This document shows, piece by piece, positions 5,090-25,322 of a stretch of DNA of 64,000 bases (positions within the stretch are counted from its first letter, which is position 1; every line of letters begins with the position of its first letter). This DNA comes from an uncultured Fibrobacteraceae bacterium. Lineage in GTDB: Bacteria > Krumholzibacteriota > Krumholzibacteriia > LZORAL124-64-63. The notes beneath the pieces are model-generated. The model was not told where the DNA came from and did not search any database. It saw nothing but the letters and a program-made list of their open reading frames with translations. The translations under genes and the position numbers were made by a program. Location of the stretch: NCBI GenBank assembly GCA_964384055.1, contig CAYLIV010000008.1, forward strand, positions 25,166 through 89,165, written 5' to 3'.

Positions 5090-5784
5090 TCCTCACCCGC
5101 GCCACGGTCGCGGCTCTGGCCCTTGATCTCGCGCACGACGTACTCCGGAATCCGTTTATCGACGCCCCGCGCCAGCTTTATCGCGGCGTCGAAATCGGCG
5201 ACGTCGAAGCGACGCGTGCGGTAGACTATGATGTGGTCGAGCGCGAATTCGATGCGGAAGCGCGGCTGTGCCAGCAAGTACTCCATCATGCGGCCGTGGA
5301 TCACATCGTAGGCCCAGCGCTTGTCCGGCGAGCTGACGTGGAAGGTGCGGCTGAACTCGGCCGATTCGAAATCGATGTCGTCCAGGCCGATGAACTCGCC
5401 GACCCTGTCGAACATGTTCTCCGGCCGGATGAACAGCGGAACCAGGGGAATCCGGCTCCGCACGAACACCAGGGACAGGCGGTGCGTGTGCCGGTTCTTG
5501 CCGTGTCCGGTGGTGTACTCGTAGTCGCAGGCAGTCAGCTCGCGACCACCCAGCGCGCCGGTGATGATGTTCCTGGCGAAACGACTGTGGCCCTTGTGGA
5601 GTATTTTGACCGCGGGAAAGAGACGGCGGAATTCCTTGTCCTTGGTGGACTGGAATTGCAGCTTGCGCCCCATGGCCCAGGCCTTGAGCCGCCGACGCCG
5701 CTTCTTCTCCGCCTGGTAGTGGGCGTAGGCCAGCGCACCGAATATCAGTACCGCCAGCAGAAACAGAACAGGCCGAAAATCCAC
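5086..5784 (-). CDS. LemA-associated membrane-anchored protein (possibly DUF3137-like)
   Basis: Overlaps the lemA start by 4 nt (operon). N-terminal TM helix MDFRPVLFLLAVLIFGALAYA followed by a soluble domain. This matches the usual LemA + partner gene arrangement. Confidence 0.45.
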   Translation of the reverse strand: MDFRPVLFLLAVLIFGALAYAHYQAEKKRRRRLKAWAMGRKLQFQSTKDKEFRRLFPAVKILHKGHSRFARNIITGALGGRELTACDYEYTTGHGKNRHTHRLSLVFVRSRIPLVPLFIRPENMFDRVGEFIGLDDIDFESAEFSRTFHVSSPDKRWAYDVIHGRMMEYLLAQPRFRIEFALDHIIVYRTRRFDVADFDAAIKLARGVDKRIPEYVVREIKGQSRDRGAGEE

Positions 5785-5921
5785 GCTTCGCCTCCGGAAC
5801 GGTCACACCAACGAGTGGTCGTCCCCTGAATATCGTCGATTCAAGGCCAGGCCTAACCCGGAGACAAGGATTTTATTGCGCGGGCGGTCCGGGCTCTCGC
5901 CCGAGCAGCCTGCAGCCACGG

Positions 5922-6575
5922 CTAGTCCAACCGGAATCGGAACGGTAGTGCCATCCATACCGCCACCGGCATTTCGCGCTGCATGCCGGGACTGAAACGG
6001 CACCGCCGGGCGGCATCCACCGCTGCCCGGTTCAGCAGCGGGTGCGCACCCTGGGCAATGCGCGTCTCCTTGATCAGTCCGTTTTTCCCGACGCGCACCT
6101 CGACCGTTACCGTGCCTTCGATCCGGGACAGGCGTGCGATCTCCGGATAGTAAGGTTGCGGACAGAAGACGAGTTGCGGTTTTGTGTAGGAAACCCTGAA
6201 TTTCGAACCCCGGTTGCCCGTTCCGATTTCACCGGGATCGCGCAGTGGCTCATCGGGGAGCAAGAACGCGTCCCAGTCGATATCGTCTTCCATGAACGCC
6301 GGATCGTCAACGGGCTCGACGATCTGCGGTATGGTCGGTGCCGGCAGCACCTCCTCGGGCAACTCGATCGCCTCCGGGAAGGGAATGATCTCGATCACGG
6401 TCTGGCGCAATGTGTACGGTGCAGGCGTGTACCGCGGCGACAGGAAGAAGATCGCCAGGGTGGCCAGTACCGCGACCAACGCGGCCCAGCGCAGATACCG
6501 GTTGTACCGGAGCTTGAACAGATCGTTGGCGGACAGCAGCGACTCGCTGCGCAGCGTGCATGCGGACATGAACAA
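5922..6575 (-). CDS. tonB: energy transducer TonB (C-terminal domain protein)
   Basis: N-terminal TM anchor, a Pro-rich linker (PEEVLPAPTIPQIVEPV), and a C-terminal TonB domain (YPEIARLSRIEGTVTVEVRVGKNGLIKETRIAQGAHPLLNRAAVDAARRCRFSPG). Confidence 0.7.
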   Translation of the reverse strand: MFMSACTLRSESLLSANDLFKLRYNRYLRWAALVAVLATLAIFFLSPRYTPAPYTLRQTVIEIIPFPEAIELPEEVLPAPTIPQIVEPVDDPAFMEDDIDWDAFLLPDEPLRDPGEIGTGNRGSKFRVSYTKPQLVFCPQPYYPEIARLSRIEGTVTVEVRVGKNGLIKETRIAQGAHPLLNRAAVDAARRCRFSPGMQREMPVAVWMALPFRFRLD

Positions 6576-7515: not shown

Positions 7516-8514
7516 ATGGCTACATTCGAAGGATATGAACGTCGCATCGACCATATCGATACGGTGCTCGAGCAGCACGGCATGAAGGATCTCGAGCAGG
7601 CCAAGGCCATGTGCGACGAGGTCGGCGTCGATGTGGACGCGATCGTCAAGGGCGTCCAGCCCATCTGTTTCGAGAACGCCTGCTGGGCCTACACTCTCGG
7701 CGCGGCGATCGCGATCAAGAAGGGCCAGAAAGCGGCGGCCGAGATCGCCGCCACCCTCGGCGAGGGCCTGCAGGCGTTCTGCATTCCCGGATCGGTCGCC
7801 GACCAGCGCCAGGTGGGTGTCGGTCACGGCAACCTCGCCTCGATGCTTCTGCGCGAGGAGACCAAGTGCTTCGCCTTCCTGGCCGGGCACGAATCGTTCG
7901 CCGCCGCCGAGGGCGCGATCGGTCTGGCCCGCTCGGCCAACAAGGTCAGGCGGGAGCCGTTGCGCGTGATCCTCAACGGCCTGGGCAAGGACGCAGCGCA
8001 GATCATCGCCCGCGTCAACGGTTTCACCTATGTCCAGACCAGGTTCGACTACGCGAGTGGCGAACTCGAGATCGTCAAGGAGATCGTCTACTCGGAAGGT
8101 GAGCGCGGCAAGGTGCGTTGCTACGGCGCGGACGATGTCCGCGAAGGGGTGGCGATCAACCATCTCGAGGGAGTCGACGTGTCGATCACCGGCAACTCGA
8201 CCAACCCGACCCGCTTCCAGCATCCGGTTGCCGGCACCTACAAGAAAGAGTGTGTCGCCGCGGGCAAGCAGTACTTCTCGGTCGCCTCGGGCGGTGGTAC
8301 GGGCCGGACGCTGCATCCGGATAACATGGGCGCCGGGCCGGCATCCTACGGCATGACCGATACGCTCGGCCGCATGCATTGCGACGCCCAGTTCGCCGGC
8401 TCGTCCTCTGTGCCGGCCCACGTGGAGATGATGGGGTTGATCGGCATGGGCAACAATCCCATGGTCGGCGCCTCGGTAGCGGTCGCCGTGGCGGTGGAGC
8501 AGGCGATGAGTTGA
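7516..8514 (+). CDS. GGGtGRT family protein (conserved protein of unknown function)
   Basis: RBS gaaagga. Contains the family's namesake motif SGGGTGRTLHP. Lies 14 nt downstream of the IscU-like gene, a recurrent pairing. Confidence 0.7.
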   Translation: MATFEGYERRIDHIDTVLEQHGMKDLEQAKAMCDEVGVDVDAIVKGVQPICFENACWAYTLGAAIAIKKGQKAAAEIAATLGEGLQAFCIPGSVADQRQVGVGHGNLASMLLREETKCFAFLAGHESFAAAEGAIGLARSANKVRREPLRVILNGLGKDAAQIIARVNGFTYVQTRFDYASGELEIVKEIVYSEGERGKVRCYGADDVREGVAINHLEGVDVSITGNSTNPTRFQHPVAGTYKKECVAAGKQYFSVASGGGTGRTLHPDNMGAGPASYGMTDTLGRMHCDAQFAGSSSVPAHVEMMGLIGMGNNPMVGASVAVAVAVEQAMS

Positions 8515-8666: not shown

Positions 8667-11600
8667 TTACTTCAACAACACCATCTTCCGCGTCAGCACC
8701 TCGTTAGCGAAGCTCAGACGGCTGAAATACAGACCGCTGGACATCTGGCGGCCGTCGTCGTCACGGCCGAGCCAGACCACGTGGTGGCTGCCGGCAGCGA
8801 GTTCGCCGCTGACCAGTGTGGCCACCTGACGGCCCGACAGATCGAAGATGGTCAGATCCACCTTGCCTGTCGCCGGCAGATCGAAGGCGATCGTCGTCTT
8901 GGGATTGAAGGGATTCGGGTAGTTCTCACCCAGCGCGAGCTTGGTCGGCACGCGCTCGGCGCCGTCATCCACAGCGGTCTCCAGCTGGCGCTCGGCCACG
9001 AGCAGGAAGTCGTCGACACCCGCCTCGACCAGTGAAGGATTGACGCTATCATCGGCGATGAACCGGATCTGTACGCGGTTGCTCAAGGTGATGTAGGCGG
9101 TCAGATCGAAGCTCATCTCCGTCCACACGGCCGCGGTGGCCTGGGTGGCCTCGAGGGGCACCCAGTCGATGCCGTTGCTGGTCACGTCGACGCGCCACCA
9201 GTCCTCGCCGGGGTTGTTGCCGGCGTTGTTGGTGTACCAGCGCCAGTAGCTGACCGAGGCGGAAACGGCGTCGGACAGATCGAAGATGGGCGACAGCAGC
9301 GTCGTCTTGCCGCCGTCCACGTCGTTGGCACCGGCAGTGCCGCCCGGTGAACCGTTGCCGGTCACGTAGCAGTTAACGCCGGGCGCCGGTGTGTGATCGT
9401 CCTCCATCTGCACGACGACGCTGTTGTAGGTCGTACCGACGGGATCGACCCGGTCCCAGATACCGCTGCTGGCATTGTCACCGAGTGCGCCGACGGTCCA
9501 GCCCAGATCGGTTTCCATGTCGTCGAACCAGCCGCCGACCGCCACCGTGAAGTCGAACTCGGCCTGGTAGCCGTTGCCGGCATCGACGACCATGTGCACG
9601 GTCAGGCTGGTCGGGGACGGACACATGGGCGAAACCTGGAGCGTGAACATTCCGGCCGTGCCCTGACCGCCGAGAACAATCGCTTCGCAAGCGGCCGTTC
9701 CGGCGAGGATGGTCAGATCCATCTCGTCGCTCGTGATCGTAGCTGTGCCGGCTTCGCTGTCTGAATGTCCCGTGTTGTCCAGGCCGACCCACAGCTGGAA
9801 GCTCTCGCCCGGCTCGATCACACCGTTGGCATTGCCGCCGTTATCCACGATATCCAGCATGCCGTTGGCCGTCAGCACCGGAGCCTGCGCCTGCAGCCCG
9901 AAGTTCATCTCCCAGATGTCGCGGCCCGCCGTGGCGGTCAGCGTGAAGGGAATGATGTAGCCGTCGGGCACATCGCCGGCCACCTCGACGGCGAAGGGCG
10001 CATCACCGGTGGCCAGGCCGCCGGCGGGAATGTCGGGGTAGGTGGCGCTACCGTCGACGACGGTGACATTGGCGTCAGCCGAGCTCAGCACCGCACTGAC
10101 CGCCGTTGCCGGCTCCACACCCACGTTCTCGAGGCTGATCTCCAGATCGGCCGACTCGCCCTCGTCCAGCTCGCCGTCGACATCACCGTCCGGATCCATG
10201 ACCGTACAGGTGTTCAGCACCAGGTACGGGCCCTCCGGCGGCAGCGCCGGCACCTCGTTCTGCACCGTGACCATGTTGTAGGCGGTCACCGTCAGGGTCA
10301 GGGTGACCACGGTTGCCGGCGGCTCGTCCATCACGATGGTCGTGTTACCCGAATGATCGGTCACGCCCGTGCCGTAGAGGATGCCGTCCGCGTAGAGTGC
10401 ACACAGGGCGCCGGTGACGCCGGGCACCGACACATCGTAGGTGTTCTGGCCGATGATCAGGGCGCCGGCGTGGTTGACGGTCATCACCTGCGCGGCCTTG
10501 GTGCGCACCGCGATCGAGGGATCACCGAAGATCGTCCAGTTCAGGAACTCGTTCTCTCCGGAGGTCCCGTACTCGTCCATCATGAGGCAGGAACCGTTGA
10601 ACCACAGGCCGCCGATCGTGCGCATCTGATCGGCGACGAGCAGATCGACCGCCTCGTCCTGGGCGGCCATGGGCGGATTCCAGGACTGGCTGATGTAGGA
10701 CATGTAGCTGGCGATGGCGCCGGTGGGCGTACCGCCGTTGGTCGCCCGCTGCCAGGCCTCGGCGAAACAGGTACCGGAATCGAAGGTACCGTTGTTGCAG
10801 GCCACGCTAACGATGAACGGCAGCATGTTGTCGTTGACCAGAGCGTTCACGTGCGTGTTGCTGAATCCGGTCGAGCCCCACGAGGTCTGGCTGCCGTGGC
10901 CGGTGTAGTTGACGATGCCGCGACCCGTGTTGAGGCCCGCGGTCACCTGCGCCGCGGTGCCGGACGGATCGTAGATCTGGTCGACGCCGAGGTACCCGTA
11001 GTTGAGCAGCTTCTGACGGATCACGTCCTCGTGTTCGTCGTCGTATTCGCCGTCGTCGCCGGGCCCCTGGTTGGAGGCCACGCCCATGCCATACTGGGGC
11101 CAAACCCCGCCGGCCATCTGGTCACGTTCGTAGGTGATGGTCCGTTCGACCTGGGTCTGTACCTGGGTGGCGTTCTCGGCGCTGAATCGGCCGACGAACA
11201 GTTCGGGATAGTTGTCGCCGCCGACCAGAGTCGAGTAACCGGGATCCGAATCCGAACCGTAGCGCGGCAGCTGCGCGGCATCACCGATCAGCAGCACGTA
11301 GGACGGTTCCCAACTGGCGAATTCGGTGCCGATGTAGCTCTTGATCTGCGAGTAGGATGAACCAGTCTCGGACAGGGTGGCCAGCTTGGTCGGGATGCCC
11401 TTCTGCATCTTCCACTCGACGAGCGGCTGCACGTACGGTGCGAAGGCGTCGTAGGAGATGATCAGCAGGCCACCGTCTTCCAGAACCGGCGTGTAGCGGC
11501 TGCCCTGATAGTTGATGAAGTGATTCTGGTACAGCTTCACGAACTGCGGATCCATCTTGGCCGGCAGGCTGTTGCGCTCGAGTACGTTTACCGTACCGGA

Positions 11601-12215
11601 CCCCACCGGTGCGACCTCGATGCGCACCCGGGTATAGACCCGCAGGGTCTCGGTGGCCGGGAAGTACTGAAACGAATTGCAGCCCACGACCATACCCCGA
11701 AAATCGCGCACGATGTGCGGATCGTCGGCGGCGACCGTCGCGGCCGGATAGACACCCGAGCCCTGGTAGAATGCGTCGAAGACGTAGGGCACGGTGGCCG
11801 GATCCACGCTCCGCAACAGGTTGCCTTTGGACGGCGCGACGGGCAGATCGGGAACATCCACGTATTCCGACGCGATGATGGTCACTGCCATCTGCCGGTC
11901 GTCGGGAATGATCAGACCGCGACGCAGGCTGGGTAGCGACGGGAAGCCGGCGTCCAGCGAAATACCCTCTCGTTCGAGTGTGATCTCGAAATAGGTACGG
12001 CCGTCGATCTCGACCGGTTCGGCATCGAAGCCGCCGACCGAGACCTCGTACACGGTTCGCTGTCCGTCGTATTCGATAACGTCGACGGCAACCGGTGCGC
12101 CGCCGAGATCGAACCATTCCGCGCTGGCCAGTGTGGGGATCAGTCCTGTAAGCACAACAATCAAGCAGAGTTGCCAGCCACAGAACCTGGACTGGAATCT
12201 TTCACGGAAATACAT
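8667..12215 (-). CDS. peptidase C25 (gingipain-like cysteine protease) with T9SS C-terminal sorting domain
   Basis: Strong RBS aaaggggggg. Signal peptide. Catalytic His/Cys motifs NYTGHGSQTSWG and FIVSVACNNGTF, typical of C25. Ig/CARDB-like repeats. C-terminal YPNPFNP...SGLYF...VLLK matches a T9SS type-A CTD. Confidence 0.85.
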   Translation of the reverse strand: MYFRERFQSRFCGWQLCLIVVLTGLIPTLASAEWFDLGGAPVAVDVIEYDGQRTVYEVSVGGFDAEPVEIDGRTYFEITLEREGISLDAGFPSLPSLRRGLIIPDDRQMAVTIIASEYVDVPDLPVAPSKGNLLRSVDPATVPYVFDAFYQGSGVYPAATVAADDPHIVRDFRGMVVGCNSFQYFPATETLRVYTRVRIEVAPVGSGTVNVLERNSLPAKMDPQFVKLYQNHFINYQGSRYTPVLEDGGLLIISYDAFAPYVQPLVEWKMQKGIPTKLATLSETGSSYSQIKSYIGTEFASWEPSYVLLIGDAAQLPRYGSDSDPGYSTLVGGDNYPELFVGRFSAENATQVQTQVERTITYERDQMAGGVWPQYGMGVASNQGPGDDGEYDDEHEDVIRQKLLNYGYLGVDQIYDPSGTAAQVTAGLNTGRGIVNYTGHGSQTSWGSTGFSNTHVNALVNDNMLPFIVSVACNNGTFDSGTCFAEAWQRATNGGTPTGAIASYMSYISQSWNPPMAAQDEAVDLLVADQMRTIGGLWFNGSCLMMDEYGTSGENEFLNWTIFGDPSIAVRTKAAQVMTVNHAGALIIGQNTYDVSVPGVTGALCALYADGILYGTGVTDHSGNTTIVMDEPPATVVTLTLTVTAYNMVTVQNEVPALPPEGPYLVLNTCTVMDPDGDVDGELDEGESADLEISLENVGVEPATAVSAVLSSADANVTVVDGSATYPDIPAGGLATGDAPFAVEVAGDVPDGYIIPFTLTATAGRDIWEMNFGLQAQAPVLTANGMLDIVDNGGNANGVIEPGESFQLWVGLDNTGHSDSEAGTATITSDEMDLTILAGTAACEAIVLGGQGTAGMFTLQVSPMCPSPTSLTVHMVVDAGNGYQAEFDFTVAVGGWFDDMETDLGWTVGALGDNASSGIWDRVDPVGTTYNSVVVQMEDDHTPAPGVNCYVTGNGSPGGTAGANDVDGGKTTLLSPIFDLSDAVSASVSYWRWYTNNAGNNPGEDWWRVDVTSNGIDWVPLEATQATAAVWTEMSFDLTAYITLSNRVQIRFIADDSVNPSLVEAGVDDFLLVAERQLETAVDDGAERVPTKLALGENYPNPFNPKTTIAFDLPATGKVDLTIFDLSGRQVATLVSGELAAGSHHVVWLGRDDDGRQMSSGLYFSRLSFANEVLTRKMVLLK

Positions 12216-12567
12216 CGGCCCCCCCTTTTTCGGGTTACAGTTTCACGAAACACCAGTTATTGGCTCTCTCTAATGAGCATTTTGTACCCTAATTTTACCA
12301 CAAAAACGCTGGCGACTCAAAGACAAGCACCGCTAAATCGTAGTGAGGGTTTATTTTAAGAGAGTTTTAGTCTTGTTTAACGGCGCACGGCATACTTGCC
12401 GGCGCGGCACACGATCGATTCCCGAGACAGGTCGTGCCCTCGCTGCCGTTCTGTGGAAGAATCGAACGGCAACCGCGAGAAAACCTCAACGCTCGAACCG
12501 CCGGACCGGTATCACCCTGTAGACAGCGGGAGCCGGAGATCGGCGTATTCAGACACGGGATCTACAG

Positions 12568-13163
12568 TGAACGAGGATCGGGAACTCATCCGGCGCGCGC
12601 AGTACGGAGACGATCAGGCTTTCGCCGCGATCGTTTCGACGTACCAGCGAAGGATCGTCTCGATCGCGCTGCGGCTGCTCGGCAACCGGGACGACGCCCT
12701 CGATGTCGCCCAGGAGGTGTTCATCCGTTTGCACCGTTACTTGCCACAATACGACCGGCGCCGGCCGTTCTTCACCTGGCTCTACCGCATCGTGGTCAAT
12801 GTCTGCCACGATCAGCTGCGCAATGCGCGCCCGTGGCGCGACGCGGTGCCGCTTGGTGAGGTTCCGCCGGGGGATCTGCCGCGGTGCCCTCCCCCGGACC
12901 ACGCCGGTGGGGAGATCGGCGGGCGGGTGCGGGAGTTGACTGCGCGGCTGAGCGACACCCAGCGTCTGGTTTTCTTGTTGCGCGAGATGGAAGGGTTTTC
13001 CTGCGGACACATCGCGCAGACGATGGATCTGCCCGAGGGCACGGTTCGCAGCCACCTGCACCACGCCCGCAAGAAACTGAGCACCCTGCTGGCGAAGCAC
13101 TACCCTGAACTGATCGAGGGCCTGCACGCCGGCCGCAGCAAGGACAGAACCGATGCACTGTAA
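12568..13163 (+). CDS. RNA polymerase ECF sigma factor (sigma-70 family)
   Basis: Sigma-70 region 2 (DVAQEVFIRLHRYLPQYDRRRPFFTWLYRIVVNVCHD) and region 4 (LSDTQRLVFLLREMEGFSCGHIAQTMDLPEGTVRSHLHHARKKL). A GTG start at 12568 is proposed; the ORF-track N-terminus at 12396 is non-sigma-like. Confidence 0.8.
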
Positions 13164-13671
13164 CAAAGCTCGAGAACAGCTGCCGCTGCTGAGCGGACGG
13201 GACCTGCCCTGGCTGCAGACGCTGGCGGTGCGCCGCCACCTTCGGCGCTGTCCTGAATGCCGGCGGGAACTCGTTCGACTCGAGGCGGCGCGGGACGTTT
13301 TCGGTACGGCGCTCCGGCAACCGGTGGACGACGAACTGGTCGCCGCCGTGTGGCGGCGGGTTCGCGGCAGCCTGCCGGCGCGGCCAGCCCTTGCAGTGCC
13401 CCAGCATAACGAAATATCAGGTGGTCCTCGGTGGCCTCGATTCGCGATCCCGGCGCTAGCAGCCGCGGCGGCACTGGCGTTGATCCTGGCACCCGGTCTA
13501 CGCGACGGCGGACACGGGGGCCGGCACACTACCGATATGTCGACACCGACGGCGACCGTGGAAGGTCCGCACGAGCCGGGTACGACAGTCTTGACGTTTC
13601 AGAACGAGAATCCCGACGTGACCATCATCTGGTTTTTTTCGGATGGCTCTGTAACAGAAGGAGAGGTTTGA
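13153..13671 (+). CDS. zinc-finger (ZAS/HC2-type) anti-sigma factor, single-pass membrane protein
   Basis: Start overlaps the sigma gene stop. HxxxCxxC motif HLRRCPECRREL, a TM helix FAIPALAAAAALALILAP, and a short extracytoplasmic tail. Confidence 0.6.
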   Translation: MHCNKAREQLPLLSGRDLPWLQTLAVRRHLRRCPECRRELVRLEAARDVFGTALRQPVDDELVAAVWRRVRGSLPARPALAVPQHNEISGGPRWPRFAIPALAAAAALALILAPGLRDGGHGGRHTTDMSTPTATVEGPHEPGTTVLTFQNENPDVTIIWFFSDGSVTEGEV

Positions 13672-13672
13672 A

Positions 13673-14635
13673 ATGCGATACAGGAATGCCGCGACACCAT
13701 CGATCGTACTGCTCGTGATCTGCTGTCTGGCGGCAGCGGCGCTGGCGCAGGGCGTTACCGGACGCGTCACCGACTCCCGCACGGGCGAGCCGATCGCCGA
13801 TGCGAAGATCATCTTCAACCACACCGGGCAGTCCCATCTGGTCTACGGCGTCAAGTCCGACGCCGACGGTTACTTCGATACCGGGGAAATCACCGAGCGA
13901 TTCGAGCACAAGGCCGGCGACATCGTCATCGTGACGGTCACCGCCCGCGGCTACGGCCAGATCGACTCGCAGGTGATCCTCGAACGCGGGGTCAGCCAGG
14001 AGAATTTCCAGCTCTACTCGATCCAGGAGCGGATACAGCGGGTGTTCACCCTGCAGCACCGGAAGGTCGAGGACCTGTTCGACATGCTCCGACCCTACGT
14101 GATCAACATGCAGGACATCGGCATCTCCGAACAATTCAATACGATCACGGTCAAGGAATCGCCGGAACAACTGCAACGGATCGCGCAGGTGATCGACGAG
14201 TTCGACACGCCGCTGAAGCAGATCTGGCTCGAGGTGATCCTCGTGCTCGCCTCGGGCGATGGTACCCGCGGGGCGGAATTCCCGCCCGAACTGGCTGACG
14301 TCGTCGCCAAGCTCGGACCGCTTTTCGTCTTCGACCGCTATCGAATCATCGGCCGGGCCAACGCCATGGGACTCGAGGGATCGACGCTGGTCTTCTCGTC
14401 CGGTACCGATGATGCCGAGTCTGCCGATTTCCAGGTCCTCGTCGAAGGTCTCGGTTACGCGAACGGGATCGTCAAGCTCGAGGATCTGCGCATCGACGTG
14501 CGCAAGCCTACCAGCAAACACATCAAGACCACCGTCAACGTGACCGCGGGCGAGATGGTGATCCTCGGCGCCTCCAGCGGCGACGCAGCCGAGGGTTCGC
14601 TGATCACCGTGGTGACAGCGCGAATCGGTTCCTGA
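13673..14635 (+). CDS. secreted protein with carboxypeptidase-regulatory-like domain plus secretin_N and secretin-like C-terminal region (mini-secretin-like)
   Basis: RBS aggagag. Signal peptide. GVTGRVTDSRTGEPIADAKIIF fits CarbopepD_reg. IQRVFTLQHRKVEDLFDMLRPYV...NTITVKESPEQLQRIAQVIDEFD resembles a secretin N-domain. KQIWLEVILVLA...TTVNVTAGEMVILGA...GSLITVVTARI resembles the start, middle and end motifs of a secretin domain. Confidence 0.45.
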   Translation: MRYRNAATPSIVLLVICCLAAAALAQGVTGRVTDSRTGEPIADAKIIFNHTGQSHLVYGVKSDADGYFDTGEITERFEHKAGDIVIVTVTARGYGQIDSQVILERGVSQENFQLYSIQERIQRVFTLQHRKVEDLFDMLRPYVINMQDIGISEQFNTITVKESPEQLQRIAQVIDEFDTPLKQIWLEVILVLASGDGTRGAEFPPELADVVAKLGPLFVFDRYRIIGRANAMGLEGSTLVFSSGTDDAESADFQVLVEGLGYANGIVKLEDLRIDVRKPTSKHIKTTVNVTAGEMVILGASSGDAAEGSLITVVTARIGS

Positions 14636-14749: not shown

Positions 14750-16780
<2,031 letters not shown>

Positions 16781-17096
16781 GCTGGCACTTTCCTCCTGGT
16801 AGAATGAAGGCCCGTACTGCACGTACGAACCCGGAGCAAACACCCAGGCCAACCCCCTGTCGCACAGAACGCAGGCGAAAAACGCCCTTACGCACACGGT
16901 TCCGAACGCTGGAAAGTCGGCCCACGAGAACCTATCGGAAATCGGCGAGTGCCGATTCGCTTCGGCGTCGAAAATAGCTCCCGTAGCGAGCGTGAGCAAG
17001 GAATTGTCAAAAAAATCACAGCAAGTAGTAAAGAGACGGGAATAGCTGAAATACACCCGGATCACCGCTGCCCGTGCGCGCGGGGAAGCGGCGGAA

Positions 17097-22809: not shown

Positions 22810-22952
22810 CGTGAAAGGGTTCCGGGCTACCGAGCAAGGCACCACCCGCGCCGGTCGGCGGGTGCGGCCGTGTTTTCTCGCACCTGGATATTCCCTATAT
22901 TGCATAACGACCTCCACGCGATCCGCCGCCGCATCCAAAAAGGTCCGTCGCA

Positions 22953-25322
22953 TTGTCTAGATCGTTGCGTCAAAACGATTCGCCCAACGACTTTCCACTG
23001 CCCTTTCGTCTGGGCGAATTTCTCGTGCAACCGGCGCTGAACCGTGTTTCGGGTGTGGATGAGATGGCCCAGGTCGAACCGCGCGTGATGCAGGTGCTGT
23101 TATGTCTGGCCGACAGCGACGGCGAGGTCGTTTCGCGCCATGCCCTGATGGACATGGTCTGGACCGACACCATCGTCGGCGAAGAAGTGCTCACACGTGC
23201 CGTCTCCGAACTCCGGCGGATCTTTCGCGACAAGGCTCGCTCACCCCGGTACATCGAGACGATTCGCAACCACGGCTACCGCCTGCTGGTGCCGGTCGTT
23301 CCGGAAGCGCCGACCGGGCGCGAAAGCGAGCCGCGGCGCGGCGGCCAGACCGCCGCCGGCCCCGACGAGGACTACGCAGAGGATGACGGACTCGACGACG
23401 ACGGACCGCTAGGCGACGGTGTCGACGACACCGAGGTTCCGGGCCGGCAGCCGGCTGTCGACAGAAACGCTGCCGGGAGTCTCGACGGCGGCAGCCGCGA
23501 AACCGCCGGCCGCGGAACCGCCCGACACGACACGGACAGACCGGGCGACGATGTTTCGCAGGTGGCCACTCACCACGCACCGTTGCTGTCGACCGGTACT
23601 TCGCGAACAAGAAGAATGGCGTATCTGCTGGCACTGGTGCTGGTACTCGCCGCCGGGTATTTCCTCGTGCAAACCGGATTCTGGAACCGGCCGGCAGTGG
23701 TCCCCCACGCGGAAACCCCGTACACGAACTACGCGGGTCTCGAGAGCAACCCCGCTCTGTCGCCCGACGGGACCAAGGTGGCGTTTTCCTGGCGTGGCCG
23801 GCACGGTGACAACCTCGACGTCTACATCAAGCAGCAGAACACGGAGATACCGCTGCGCCTGACCACGGATCCGGGCTGGGACGGCGCGCCGGTATGGTCG
23901 CCGGATGGCAGCGAGATCGCCTATATCAACGGGACAGCTCGAGAATCGCGGATCTTCACGGTGGCGGCCATCGGCGGGCCGCCGCGGCAGATCTACAGCT
24001 CGCCGACGTGGATCCAGGGCATCGACTGGTCGCCGGACGGACGAACCCTGGCCCTGTCGGCCCGCGGCAATTCCGACGAGCCGTTCCGCATCCATCTGCT
24101 GGATCTGCACACCCGCGAGCTCTCGGCGCTTACTTCGCCGGTGGAGTCGGGTTACGCCGATTTTGCGCCTCGCTTCTCGCCCGACGGCCAGACCGTTGCC
24201 CTGGCGCGGTATGACCTTGCAAACCGCGGCGATCTCTTCGTCGTTCCCCGTGACGGCGGCGATCCGCGTCAGGTCACGACCGGTCTGCTGTCCATCCAGG
24301 GGCTGAGCTGGTCGGCGGCTGGCAGCGACCTGATCTGTGCCGCGGGCGGCGCCGGCATCTCCAGTCTCTGGCGCATCTCCGTGGCCGACGGTGCGCGTTC
24401 CTGGATCCCGCTACGCGCCGACTACGTGCGCAATCCCACCATCGCCCGCGCCGGTGGCGCACTGGTATTCGAGAAGCTGACCCAGCGCATCGATGTTGTG
24501 CAGATTCGTATCCTGCAACGCGAACCCTTCCGTCTCGAAACTTCACCCTTCATCACGTCTACCCGCTGGGATTTCGGCGCACATATCGATCGCGAGAGCC
24601 AACGTGTCGTTTTCGCCTCCTCGCGTTCGGGACATCCGGAAATCTGGATGTGTGACGCCGACGGCGATAATCCCTCCCAGCTGACCTTTTTCGAAGGCCT
24701 CCACGTCAGCCCTCCGCGCTGGTCACCGGACGGTCGGCAGATCGCCTTCAGCGCCAATCTGGACGGCCACGCGGTTGTCCACCTGCTCGACGCGGCAGGC
24801 GGACCGCCGCGCGCGCTGGTCGGCGACGGTTATCACGATGCGTTCTGCGGCTGGTCGCGCGACGGCGCCTGGCTGTATTTCGGTTCGGACCGCAGCGGAA
24901 CCTGGCAGATCGCCAGGATGCATCCAGACGGCGCCGGTCTGGAAACGGTCACCAGCGGCGGCGGTTATCTCGCCCAGGAATCCCAGGACGGCCACATCCT
25001 TTATTTCACCAGACCGGACGCGCCCGGAATCTGGTCCACGCCGACGGCTGGCGGCTCCGAGGAATTGCTCATCGATTCTCTGTTACCCCAGGACCGCAGC
25101 AACTGGGTCGTGCACGCGGACGGTATCTATTTCATCTTCCGCGGTGATCGAGACAACATGTTGTGTTTCTACGAGTTCGCCTCTGCCGAGACGCGCCTGT
25201 TGACCGGCATCGGCCATATCACCGAGGGTGGCCTGAGTTGCTCGCCCGACGGTCAGACCATCTTGCTCGCCCAGACGGAATACCTGGCCGGCGATCTCGT
25301 GCTGGTCGAGGATTTTCGCTGA
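22953..25322 (+). CDS. CadC/OmpR-family winged-helix transcriptional regulator fused to a TM helix and a periplasmic TolB-like beta-propeller
   Basis: TTG start. N-terminal trans_reg_C wHTH (FRLGEFLVQPALNRV...RHALMDMVWTDTIVGEEVLTRAVSELRR). A TM helix MAYLLALVLVLAAGYFLV. Repeated WD40-like/TolB-type PDG motifs (WSPDGSEIAY, WSPDGRTLAL, FSPDGQTVAL, WSPDGRQIAF). Confidence 0.7.
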   Translation: MSRSLRQNDSPNDFPLPFRLGEFLVQPALNRVSGVDEMAQVEPRVMQVLLCLADSDGEVVSRHALMDMVWTDTIVGEEVLTRAVSELRRIFRDKARSPRYIETIRNHGYRLLVPVVPEAPTGRESEPRRGGQTAAGPDEDYAEDDGLDDDGPLGDGVDDTEVPGRQPAVDRNAAGSLDGGSRETAGRGTARHDTDRPGDDVSQVATHHAPLLSTGTSRTRRMAYLLALVLVLAAGYFLVQTGFWNRPAVVPHAETPYTNYAGLESNPALSPDGTKVAFSWRGRHGDNLDVYIKQQNTEIPLRLTTDPGWDGAPVWSPDGSEIAYINGTARESRIFTVAAIGGPPRQIYSSPTWIQGIDWSPDGRTLALSARGNSDEPFRIHLLDLHTRELSALTSPVESGYADFAPRFSPDGQTVALARYDLANRGDLFVVPRDGGDPRQVTTGLLSIQGLSWSAAGSDLICAAGGAGISSLWRISVADGARSWIPLRADYVRNPTIARAGGALVFEKLTQRIDVVQIRILQREPFRLETSPFITSTRWDFGAHIDRESQRVVFASSRSGHPEIWMCDADGDNPSQLTFFEGLHVSPPRWSPDGRQIAFSANLDGHAVVHLLDAAGGPPRALVGDGYHDAFCGWSRDGAWLYFGSDRSGTWQIARMHPDGAGLETVTSGGGYLAQESQDGHILYFTRPDAPGIWSTPTAGGSEELLIDSLLPQDRSNWVVHADGIYFIFRGDRDNMLCFYEFASAETRLLTGIGHITEGGLSCSPDGQTILLAQTEYLAGDLVLVEDFR

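Follow-up and report, generated by a model that had tools for sequence, protein, structure and literature searches.

Canonical secretins, such as GspD/XcpQ, PilQ, InvG, RcpA, and pIV of phage f1, are built on a conserved core of an inner and an outer β-wall, from which the β-lip enters the outer membrane while an amphipathic helical loop (AHL) lies at the inner leaflet (PMC10499894, PMC8563730). Among shortened secretins, the closest precedents are an engineered minimal PulD construct of N3 and C-domain, which suffices for multimerization and forms a prepore before membrane insertion (PMC4604470), and the mitochondrial truncated or split GspD, GspDL, and GspDN, drastically shortened secretin-derived proteins in which Secretin_N occurs as small separate proteins (PMC8134430). 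Both precedents are still pore formers. Here we describe a 64-kb stretch of contig CAYLIV010000008.1 (the window, to which all coordinates refer) that encodes a secretin-derived protein of another kind, the mini-secretin, directly behind genes for an extracytoplasmic function (ECF) sigma factor and its anti-sigma factor. The core of canonical secretins measures about 225 to 240 amino acids (aa), whereas that of mini-secretins measures 128 to 170 (112 diverse family members aligned). Canonical secretins have a β-lip, an AHL, an N0 domain, and an S domain, all absent from the mini-secretin, in which the gate positions also appear short and variable; the placement of an N3-type Secretin_N domain directly before the C-domain is kept. 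The PulD construct has the same N3 and C-domain but retains the elements for insertion and reaches the outer membrane, and unlike mitochondrial GspD and GspDN, the mini-secretin retains the whole core apart from lip and AHL and is encoded alongside regulators of transcription. Canonical secretins accompany genes of type II and type III systems for secretion (T2SS, T3SS), type IV pili, Tad, or phage assembly; the mini-secretin loci examined always contain the ECF sigma/anti-sigma pair and never those genes.

Among ECF systems, RpoE-RseA-RseB and AlgU-MucA-MucB have the same order of components as the mini-secretin locus, namely, sigma factor, single-pass anti-sigma factor, and exported protein. 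RseB and MucB bind the periplasmic part of their anti-sigma factor and gate its proteolysis. They have no relation to the mini-secretin in sequence or fold (no match to the MucB_RseB Pfam model), and the anti-sigma factor of the present locus differs in being of the zinc-binding (ZAS) type with a much shorter periplasmic tail. PMC7826278 touches on the ECF02 context. In FecI-FecR-FecA, the signaling domain of the transducer acts on FecR, and the role proposed below for the mini-secretin on its anti-sigma factor would be analogous. FecA and the SusC-like transducers of Bacteroidota nevertheless consist of an N-terminal extension (NTE), STN, plug, and barrel, of which the mini-secretin shares only the NTE-like CarboxypepD_reg domain; its N domain is N3 type (PF03958) and not the N0/STN type of those transducers. 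In function, the nearest analogues are probably those third components of ECF systems that are of the RseB or the FecA type, to which the mini-secretin bears no relation in fold.

The main features of the locus are as follows.

12485 to 12513, + strand: putative promoter of the ECF type for autoregulation, CTCAAC-N18-GTATC (elements resembling −35 and −10), 54 nt 5′ of the sigma start codon
12567 to 13163, + strand: ECF (group IV) sigma factor gene, 198 aa, GTG start, stop TAA at 13161 to 13163
13153 to 13671, + strand: anti-sigma factor gene, 172 aa, start ATG at 13153, stop TGA at 13669 to 13671
13659 to 13668, + strand: putative ribosome-binding site of the mini-secretin gene, GAAGGAGAGG, within the end of the anti-sigma gene (read from sequence)
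13673 to 14635, + strand: mini-secretin gene, 320 aa, start ATG at 13673

The list of open reading frames (ORFs) in the window gives these three + strand genes head to tail, the 3′ end of the sigma gene and the 5′ end of the anti-sigma gene sharing 11 nt. Independent metagenome gene calls on identical contigs return the same three genes, including the 198-aa sigma factor, and the identical 320-aa mini-secretin is encoded on 16 metagenome contigs. The initial annotation had described tight packing, a sigma/anti-sigma overlap, and a third gene right behind the anti-sigma stop with a ribosome-binding site ahead of it, all of which hold; its sigma start at 12568 was one base out of frame and is corrected here to the GTG at 12567. 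The three genes are translationally coupled. No RNA families were found in the window by an Rfam scan.

The mini-secretin can be divided into four parts.

13673 to 13750, + strand: predicted signal peptide, a hydrophobic N terminus ending ALA-QG
13754 to 14014, + strand: CarboxypepD_reg (transthyretin-like) domain, residues 28 to 114
14033 to 14206, + strand: Secretin_N (N3-type) domain, residues 121 to 178, from Pfam and the family profile
14207 to 14632, + strand: stripped secretin-core domain, residues 179 to 320, predicted to have a two-sheet secretin fold without β-lip, AHL, and S domain and with apparently short gate positions

The first three of these had been recognized in the initial annotation and are borne out. 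The only strongly hydrophobic segment of the protein, residues 11 to 29, ends in ALA-QG and fits a signal peptide, and Pfam matches lie above cutoff both for CarboxypepD_reg (residues 28 to 109; 33.8 bits, cutoff 32.3) and for Secretin_N (PF03958; residues 123 to 183; 34.3 bits, cutoff 28.2). A profile of the family matches the last N domain of PilQ and GspD (E = 7.5e-15 to 5e-10), and this match continues into the first strand of the C-domain (KQIWLEVILV). Farther on, TTVNVTAGEMVILGA aligns weakly in the family profile with the PilQ strand TQVLVNNGETVVLGG (T.v.v.nGetvvlGG). Profile searches against PDB gave matches confined to the first core strand plus a weak second motif. None of the secretin equivalogs of NCBIfam came near its cutoff (GspD reached 37.6 bits versus 351, in the N domain only), and a relative, P0034, scores 16.5 bits against Pfam Secretin, for which the cutoff is 27.5.

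Structure prediction extends the resemblance to the C-terminal domain. AlphaFold2 with 13 homologues produced a confident model of the full-length protein (predicted local distance difference test [pLDDT], 85) and a very confident model of residues 179 to 320 alone (pLDDT, 89.7; predicted template modeling score [pTM], 0.85). A structural comparison with this model aligned 108 to 111 of its 142 residues with secretins at 3.0 to 3.8 Å, and the next fold scored 6.6. Foldseek agreed, retrieving InvG, MxiD, GspD, PilQ, and others at probabilities of 0.96 to 1.0. The Foldseek alignments stretch the 142-residue query over 215 to 273 columns, leaving some 90 to 120 target residues without a counterpart, and the core strands are about 10 to 13 residues long (DSSP on the model). 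The C-terminal 142 aa are therefore modeled as the two-sheet secretin-domain fold, comprising the outer and inner barrel walls. The three secretin pore motifs named in the initial annotation fall short of significance in Pfam Secretin and yet are real secretin elements according to the family profile and the predicted fold.

What the targets have and the mini-secretin lacks can be located by comparing the 112 aligned members with two true secretins, P0132 and P0094 (134 and 153 bits to Pfam Secretin, respectively). At the lip position, from the first strand to the conserved helix, members have 8 to 16 residues (median, 12; also 12 in the window protein), compared with 46 to 55 in the true secretins; the β-lip of secretins has been given as 36 to 80 residues (PMC8563730). 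At the AHL position, from ...VILGAS to the last strand, all 112 members have 8 to 11 residues (10 in the window protein), while the equivalent segment of P0132 and P0094 (...GGL to the last strand) has 34 or 35 and carries VP.LG.IP.LG..F. These two lengths are invariant family traits. Positions of Gate-1 (9 to 35 residues; 16 in the window protein) and Gate-2 (6 to 28; 9 in the window protein) were mapped by a low-probability hhalign alignment and secondary structure. The most conserved elements are the first strand, the last strand, and the T.VN..GE.VVLGAS strand. No N0 domain, S domain, or lipobox is present in the mini-secretin, and no hydrophobic or aromatic belt is evident. What remains in the mini-secretin is the periplasmic core of a secretin, stripped of the parts that engage the membrane.

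A word-indexed search found few relatives of the mini-secretin; an exhaustive profile search returned 102 cluster representatives at E < 1e-30, and about 124 of its best 150 matches cover the full N3 domain and core in proteins of 200 to 430 aa. A second indexed search gave 787 proteins at E ≤ 1e-5; of the 120 matches listed, nearly all are 220 to 232 aa long. Those listed with an organism name are mostly from metagenome-assembled genomes (MAGs) of Thermoanaerobaculia, in which members bear no annotation beyond “secretin N-terminal domain-containing protein” or “hypothetical.” In all, the family amounts to several hundred sequence clusters or more, with many in the Acidobacteriota class Thermoanaerobaculia and others in several unclassified lineages. 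Members have zero, one, or two copies of CarboxypepD_reg, and about two-thirds have none.

Gene order was compared at 14 loci (the window, L005, L007, L008, L009, L011 to L014, and L015 to L019); a profile scan of genome contigs with a narrower alignment gave five loci. An ECF sigma gene, a gene for an anti-sigma factor of ∼165 to 180 aa, and the mini-secretin gene follow one another at all 13 loci long enough to show the order, and on the short, cut-off contig L018 the anti-sigma transmembrane helix and tail still lie directly upstream of the mini-secretin. The loci span 28 to 48% identity and upstream GC contents of roughly 23 to 64%, and their flanking genes are unrelated, except that four Thermoanaerobaculia loci have common flanks and are not mutually independent. 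Where the anti-sigma and mini-secretin genes meet, the spacing varies between a 4-nt overlap, which is frequent, and a 37-nt gap. No T2SS, T3SS, type IV pilus, Tad, or filamentous-phage assembly genes were found in the flanks (4 to 10 kb per side where the contig allowed), and no pilotin gene was found at the mini-secretin loci. The proposal of a mini-secretin-like protein in an ECF sigma/anti-sigma operon is therefore upheld by the predicted fold, the large family, and the three-gene order at every related locus examined.

Two other explanations of the protein were considered and rejected. A SusC-like N-terminal fragment would not account for the absence of STN, plug, and barrel (no match to STN, Plug, TonB_dep_Rec, or FecR in Pfam or NCBIfam) or for the conserved C terminus and length; moreover, the NTE-like domain is missing from most members. 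A pseudogene or fragment of a full secretin is rejected in view of the family size, conserved length, and conserved synteny. Because four defining features of secretins are lacking, namely, a match to the Pfam model, a β-lip, an AHL, and an association with secretion, pilus, or phage genes, we regard the family as secretin derived and do not file it as secretins.

Three features of the anti-sigma factor can be placed on the sequence.

13237 to 13260, + strand: HxxxCxxC motif, H29xxxC33xxC36 (read from sequence)
13441 to 13500, + strand: transmembrane helix, residues 97 to 116 (best Kyte-Doolittle 19-residue window, score 2.14)
13576 to 13638, + strand: conserved C-terminal periplasmic β-hairpin motif, PGTTVLTFQNENPDVTIIWFF (from the comparison of loci)

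The protein matches zf-HC2 in Pfam (28.8 bits, cutoff 22.2), and PDB matches to its N-terminal domain are the anti-sigma factors DdvA, RsiW, and ChrR. It has a single hydrophobic helix (residues 98 to 116), with an equivalent hydrophobic segment in the homologues, and only 56 residues follow. From its sequence, it is a predicted single-pass class I anti-sigma factor of the ZAS type, a standard cytoplasmic sigma binder. The best-conserved part of the anti-sigma factor is its tail, with the consensus xTVxTFxTxDPxVxIVWFF[DE] at 14 of 14 loci; the Thermoanaerobaculia variant, ATIVEVPTxxxDDVKIVMIFDE, is still recognizable. The tail has no match in Pfam or PDB, and with so short a periplasmic portion, the anti-sigma factor would be unable to sense a signal unaided. 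At L005, the anti-sigma gene call (114 aa, from 5619) is too short: tblastn homology to the window anti-sigma factor starts at 5451 and includes the zinc-finger region, placing the gene at 5451 to 5963.

The sigma product consists of sigma-70 regions 2 and 4 only (Pfam Sigma70_r2, 65.6 bits; Sigma70_r4_2, 53 bits) and matches TIGR02937 sigma70-ECF (81.7 bits, cutoff 42.9); no NCBIfam model for a specific ECF equivalog reached its cutoff, and its domains indicate a generic ECF (group IV) sigma factor. ECF promoters have an AAC element at −35 and a CGT or GTA element at −10. The pattern YTMRAC-N17/18-GTAY occurs 38 to 109 nt upstream of the sigma gene at 12 of the 12 loci scanned, at upstream GC contents from 23% to 64%; shuffled controls gave 0.1 loci, with a maximum of 2. 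In our judgment, this conserved motif has the layout of an ECF autoregulatory promoter. The stricter form TCAAC-N17/18-GTATY occurs once in the window, upstream of the sigma gene. That the sigma factor drives the operon, as had been proposed, thus agrees with a conserved ECF-type promoter and with translational coupling, the drive itself being a prediction from sequence. The degenerate pattern has six other matches in the window, at 11186 (−), 18876 (+), 26172 (−), 29254 (−), 50915 (−), and 63489 (−), of which at least that at 11186 (−) falls within a coding region; some chance matches are to be expected in 128 kb of two-strand sequence. A sigma-E-like GAAAC-N17-TCTAA at 12246 to 12272 (+), in the low-GC spacer upstream of the sigma gene, had been the first promoter candidate and was set aside, as it is not conserved in related loci; it is probably a chance match or the site of another regulator.

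We tentatively propose, at a probability of roughly 0.45, that the three proteins form a self-contained, self-regulated envelope-signaling module in which the mini-secretin is the periplasmic partner of the anti-sigma tail. The ECF sigma factor would be held at the inner membrane by its zinc-finger, single-pass anti-sigma factor, and the mini-secretin would be exported to the periplasm and bind the anti-sigma hairpin, which would probably join as an added strand along an edge left open in the secretin core or in the N3 domain. This contact would control whether the anti-sigma factor is degraded and the sigma factor released; freed sigma factor would then retranscribe the operon from the conserved promoter and act on unlinked targets. 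Input would likely be received by the CarboxypepD_reg domains, where present, and by the loops of variable length at the gate positions. Binding between tail and mini-secretin is the most economical reading because the periplasmic portion of the anti-sigma factor is short yet ends in a highly conserved hairpin and because the cotranslated mini-secretin is the only other invariant periplasmic component; most plausibly, by analogy, the module would work like an RseA-RseB-type system. The gene structure, the domains, the predicted fold, the loss of lip and AHL across the family, the synteny, the anti-sigma tail, and the promoter motif come from the analysis itself; that the mini-secretin lies in the periplasm, that it touches the tail, which way control runs, and whether it is a ring or a monomer are our inferences. 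A periplasmic signaling module was one of two alternatives in the initial annotation and is the one favored by the loss of lip and AHL, the synteny, and the conserved anti-sigma tail.

Several observations weigh against this proposal. Similarity to the secretin domain is weak at the sequence level: Pfam Secretin (PF00263) gives no match to the 320-aa protein even at E ≤ 1, and hhalign in local mode assigns a collinear alignment to the secretin domain a probability of only 7%. The evidence for the fold comes from a predicted structure, none having been solved, and the promoter pattern was counted on the very loci that had served to define it. Tight linkage and cotranscription fit equally well with the mini-secretin being the main output of the sigma factor. 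Moreover, the retained N3 and C-domain are the unit sufficient for secretin multimerization (PMC4604470), and a ring-forming structural role is plausible for that reason. Such a role is compatible with signaling or an alternative to it, and both readings can be true. In its alternative form, the main rival to our proposal although rather unlikely, the mini-secretin would be a sigma-controlled effector, a periplasmic ring of 12 to 15 subunits that amounts to a secretin prepore or vestibule made permanent and that might sit beneath the outer membrane or on some other complex of the envelope; it would be the main ECF output, and the anti-sigma factor would sense by other means. Retention of the part of PulD sufficient for assembly, the formation of a PulD prepore before membrane insertion (PMC4604470), and the need for N3 in pore assembly (PMC8134430) agree with a ring, as do the strongest conservation in the first, last, and T.VN..GE.VVLGAS strands and the position of the only stricter promoter copy in 64 kb, ahead of the mini-secretin operon. 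An effector of this kind would nevertheless leave the strongly conserved terminal hairpin on the tiny periplasmic part of the anti-sigma factor in need of a partner, the vicinity holds no further conserved genes for structural or secretion proteins, and the role does not exclude signaling.

Whether a ring could become a pore is addressed by the missing elements. If multimeric, the mini-secretin would stop at a soluble or peripheral ring, because the insertion elements are absent. The other alternative of the initial annotation, a minimal outer-membrane channel (a small pore, with or without a gate, through which an ECF-controlled export or uptake would run), is consistent with the predicted secretin-core fold, the signal peptide, and the outer-membrane host implied by a type IX secretion system (T9SS) cargo encoded next door; an outer-membrane pore is disfavored, however, because β-lip and AHL are absent family-wide (112 of 112 members) and the gate positions appear reduced, and the lack of a β-lip or gate had itself been named beforehand as speaking against a pore. 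Strands of ∼10 to 13 residues with no evident hydrophobic or aromatic belt, the lack of an S domain, a lipobox, a pilotin gene, and a Pfam Secretin match, and the lack of partner secretion, pilus, or phage-assembly genes at any locus point the same way, making a channel highly improbable. The compact, confident prediction for the C-domain alone (pTM, 0.85) would also suit a monomeric soluble β-sandwich derived from a secretin and serving as a binding or scaffold protein (e.g., for glycan or peptidoglycan via CarboxypepD_reg, a domain common in surface and carbohydrate-handling proteins), cotranscribed but with no part in sigma control. This is doubtful, as about two-thirds of the members lack CarboxypepD_reg and as invariant adjacency to the anti-sigma gene, with a frequent 4-nt overlap, across very distant lineages would be unusual for passive cargo. 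A more speculative and similarly improbable idea is that of a split secretin, in which the anti-sigma hairpin would supply in trans the strands missing at the lip position, giving a periplasmic ring or prepore-like oligomer, made up of mini-secretin together with numerous anti-sigma tails, whose assembly, disassembly, or ligand occupancy would set sigma activity.

The neighboring genes differ between organisms. Divergent from the sigma gene, at 8667 to 12215 (−), lies a gene for a 1,182-aa C25 (gingipain-family) peptidase with a propeptide, an Ig-like domain, FlgD_ig, and a T9SS C-terminal sorting domain; the sorting domain indicates a T9SS-bearing diderm host. The spacer between the two genes is 351 bp long with ∼52% GC, compared with ∼63% around it, and contains a sigma-70-like promoter match for the peptidase at 12320 to 12292 on the minus strand. 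The divergent T9SS protease and low-GC spacer noted in the initial annotation are thus real, but their link to the module is incidental: the peptidase lies next to the module only in contigs identical to the window, and it was rejected as a part of the system since it is absent from every related locus of another organism. Upstream of the protease, at about 7516 to 8514 (+), is a gene for a GGGtGRT-family protein, and at about 22950 to 25320 (+) is one for a protein of ∼785 aa in which Trans_reg_C (OmpR-type DNA binding) is fused to Tricorn/PD40 β-propeller repeats (both mapped from contigs L001/L002). A gene for a membrane H+-pyrophosphatase at 14750 to 17065 (−) is convergent with the mini-secretin gene, the two stops lying ∼115 nt apart; its ORF of 771 aa compares with metagenome calls of 676 to 697 aa, and the true start is probably internal.

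Elsewhere, on L007 (MAG JAFGRY010000009.1; 876 to 4711), a second ECF sigma/zf-HC2 anti-sigma pair followed by a gene for an 830-aa tetratricopeptide repeat (TPR)-like protein lies immediately upstream of the module, so that ECF modules appear to be stacked in tandem, and a subtilisin-family S8 peptidase gene lies immediately downstream. The family profile search also returned very large proteins (up to 3,999 aa) with 10 to 18 tandem matches to the Secretin_N region; tandem matches were seen in P0030, P0046, P0083, P0087, P0089, P0114, P0120, P0130, and P0131 and also in P0066, P0068, P0072, and P0096. Four proteins of 600 to 742 aa with multiple N domains were checked and have five to seven Secretin_N domains, some with N0/STN, and no Secretin pore domain. 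Such proteins, with many N domains and no pore domain, may represent a further use of secretin modules that has gone unstudied, or they may reflect cut-off gene calls.

Full-text searches of the literature turned up no account of the mini-secretin family, nor of ECF operons that encode a secretin-like protein, and the main text of the ECF reclassification paper mentions no secretin-like protein. The labels “secretin N-terminal domain-containing” and “carboxypeptidase regulatory-like” say too little for mini-secretins, a family wired to a transcription switch rather than to a secretion machine. If the proposed module is correct, the mini-secretin would be a new type of third component in ECF signaling, and the secretin fold would have a life outside secretion. 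Structural biologists would also gain a soluble model of ∼200 residues for both the core and the prepore of secretins, as well as a way into secretin evolution. Were the anti-sigma hairpin to complete the core in trans, this would be a new principle of trans-envelope signaling and might offer a glimpse of the secretin core in the time before membrane insertion arose.

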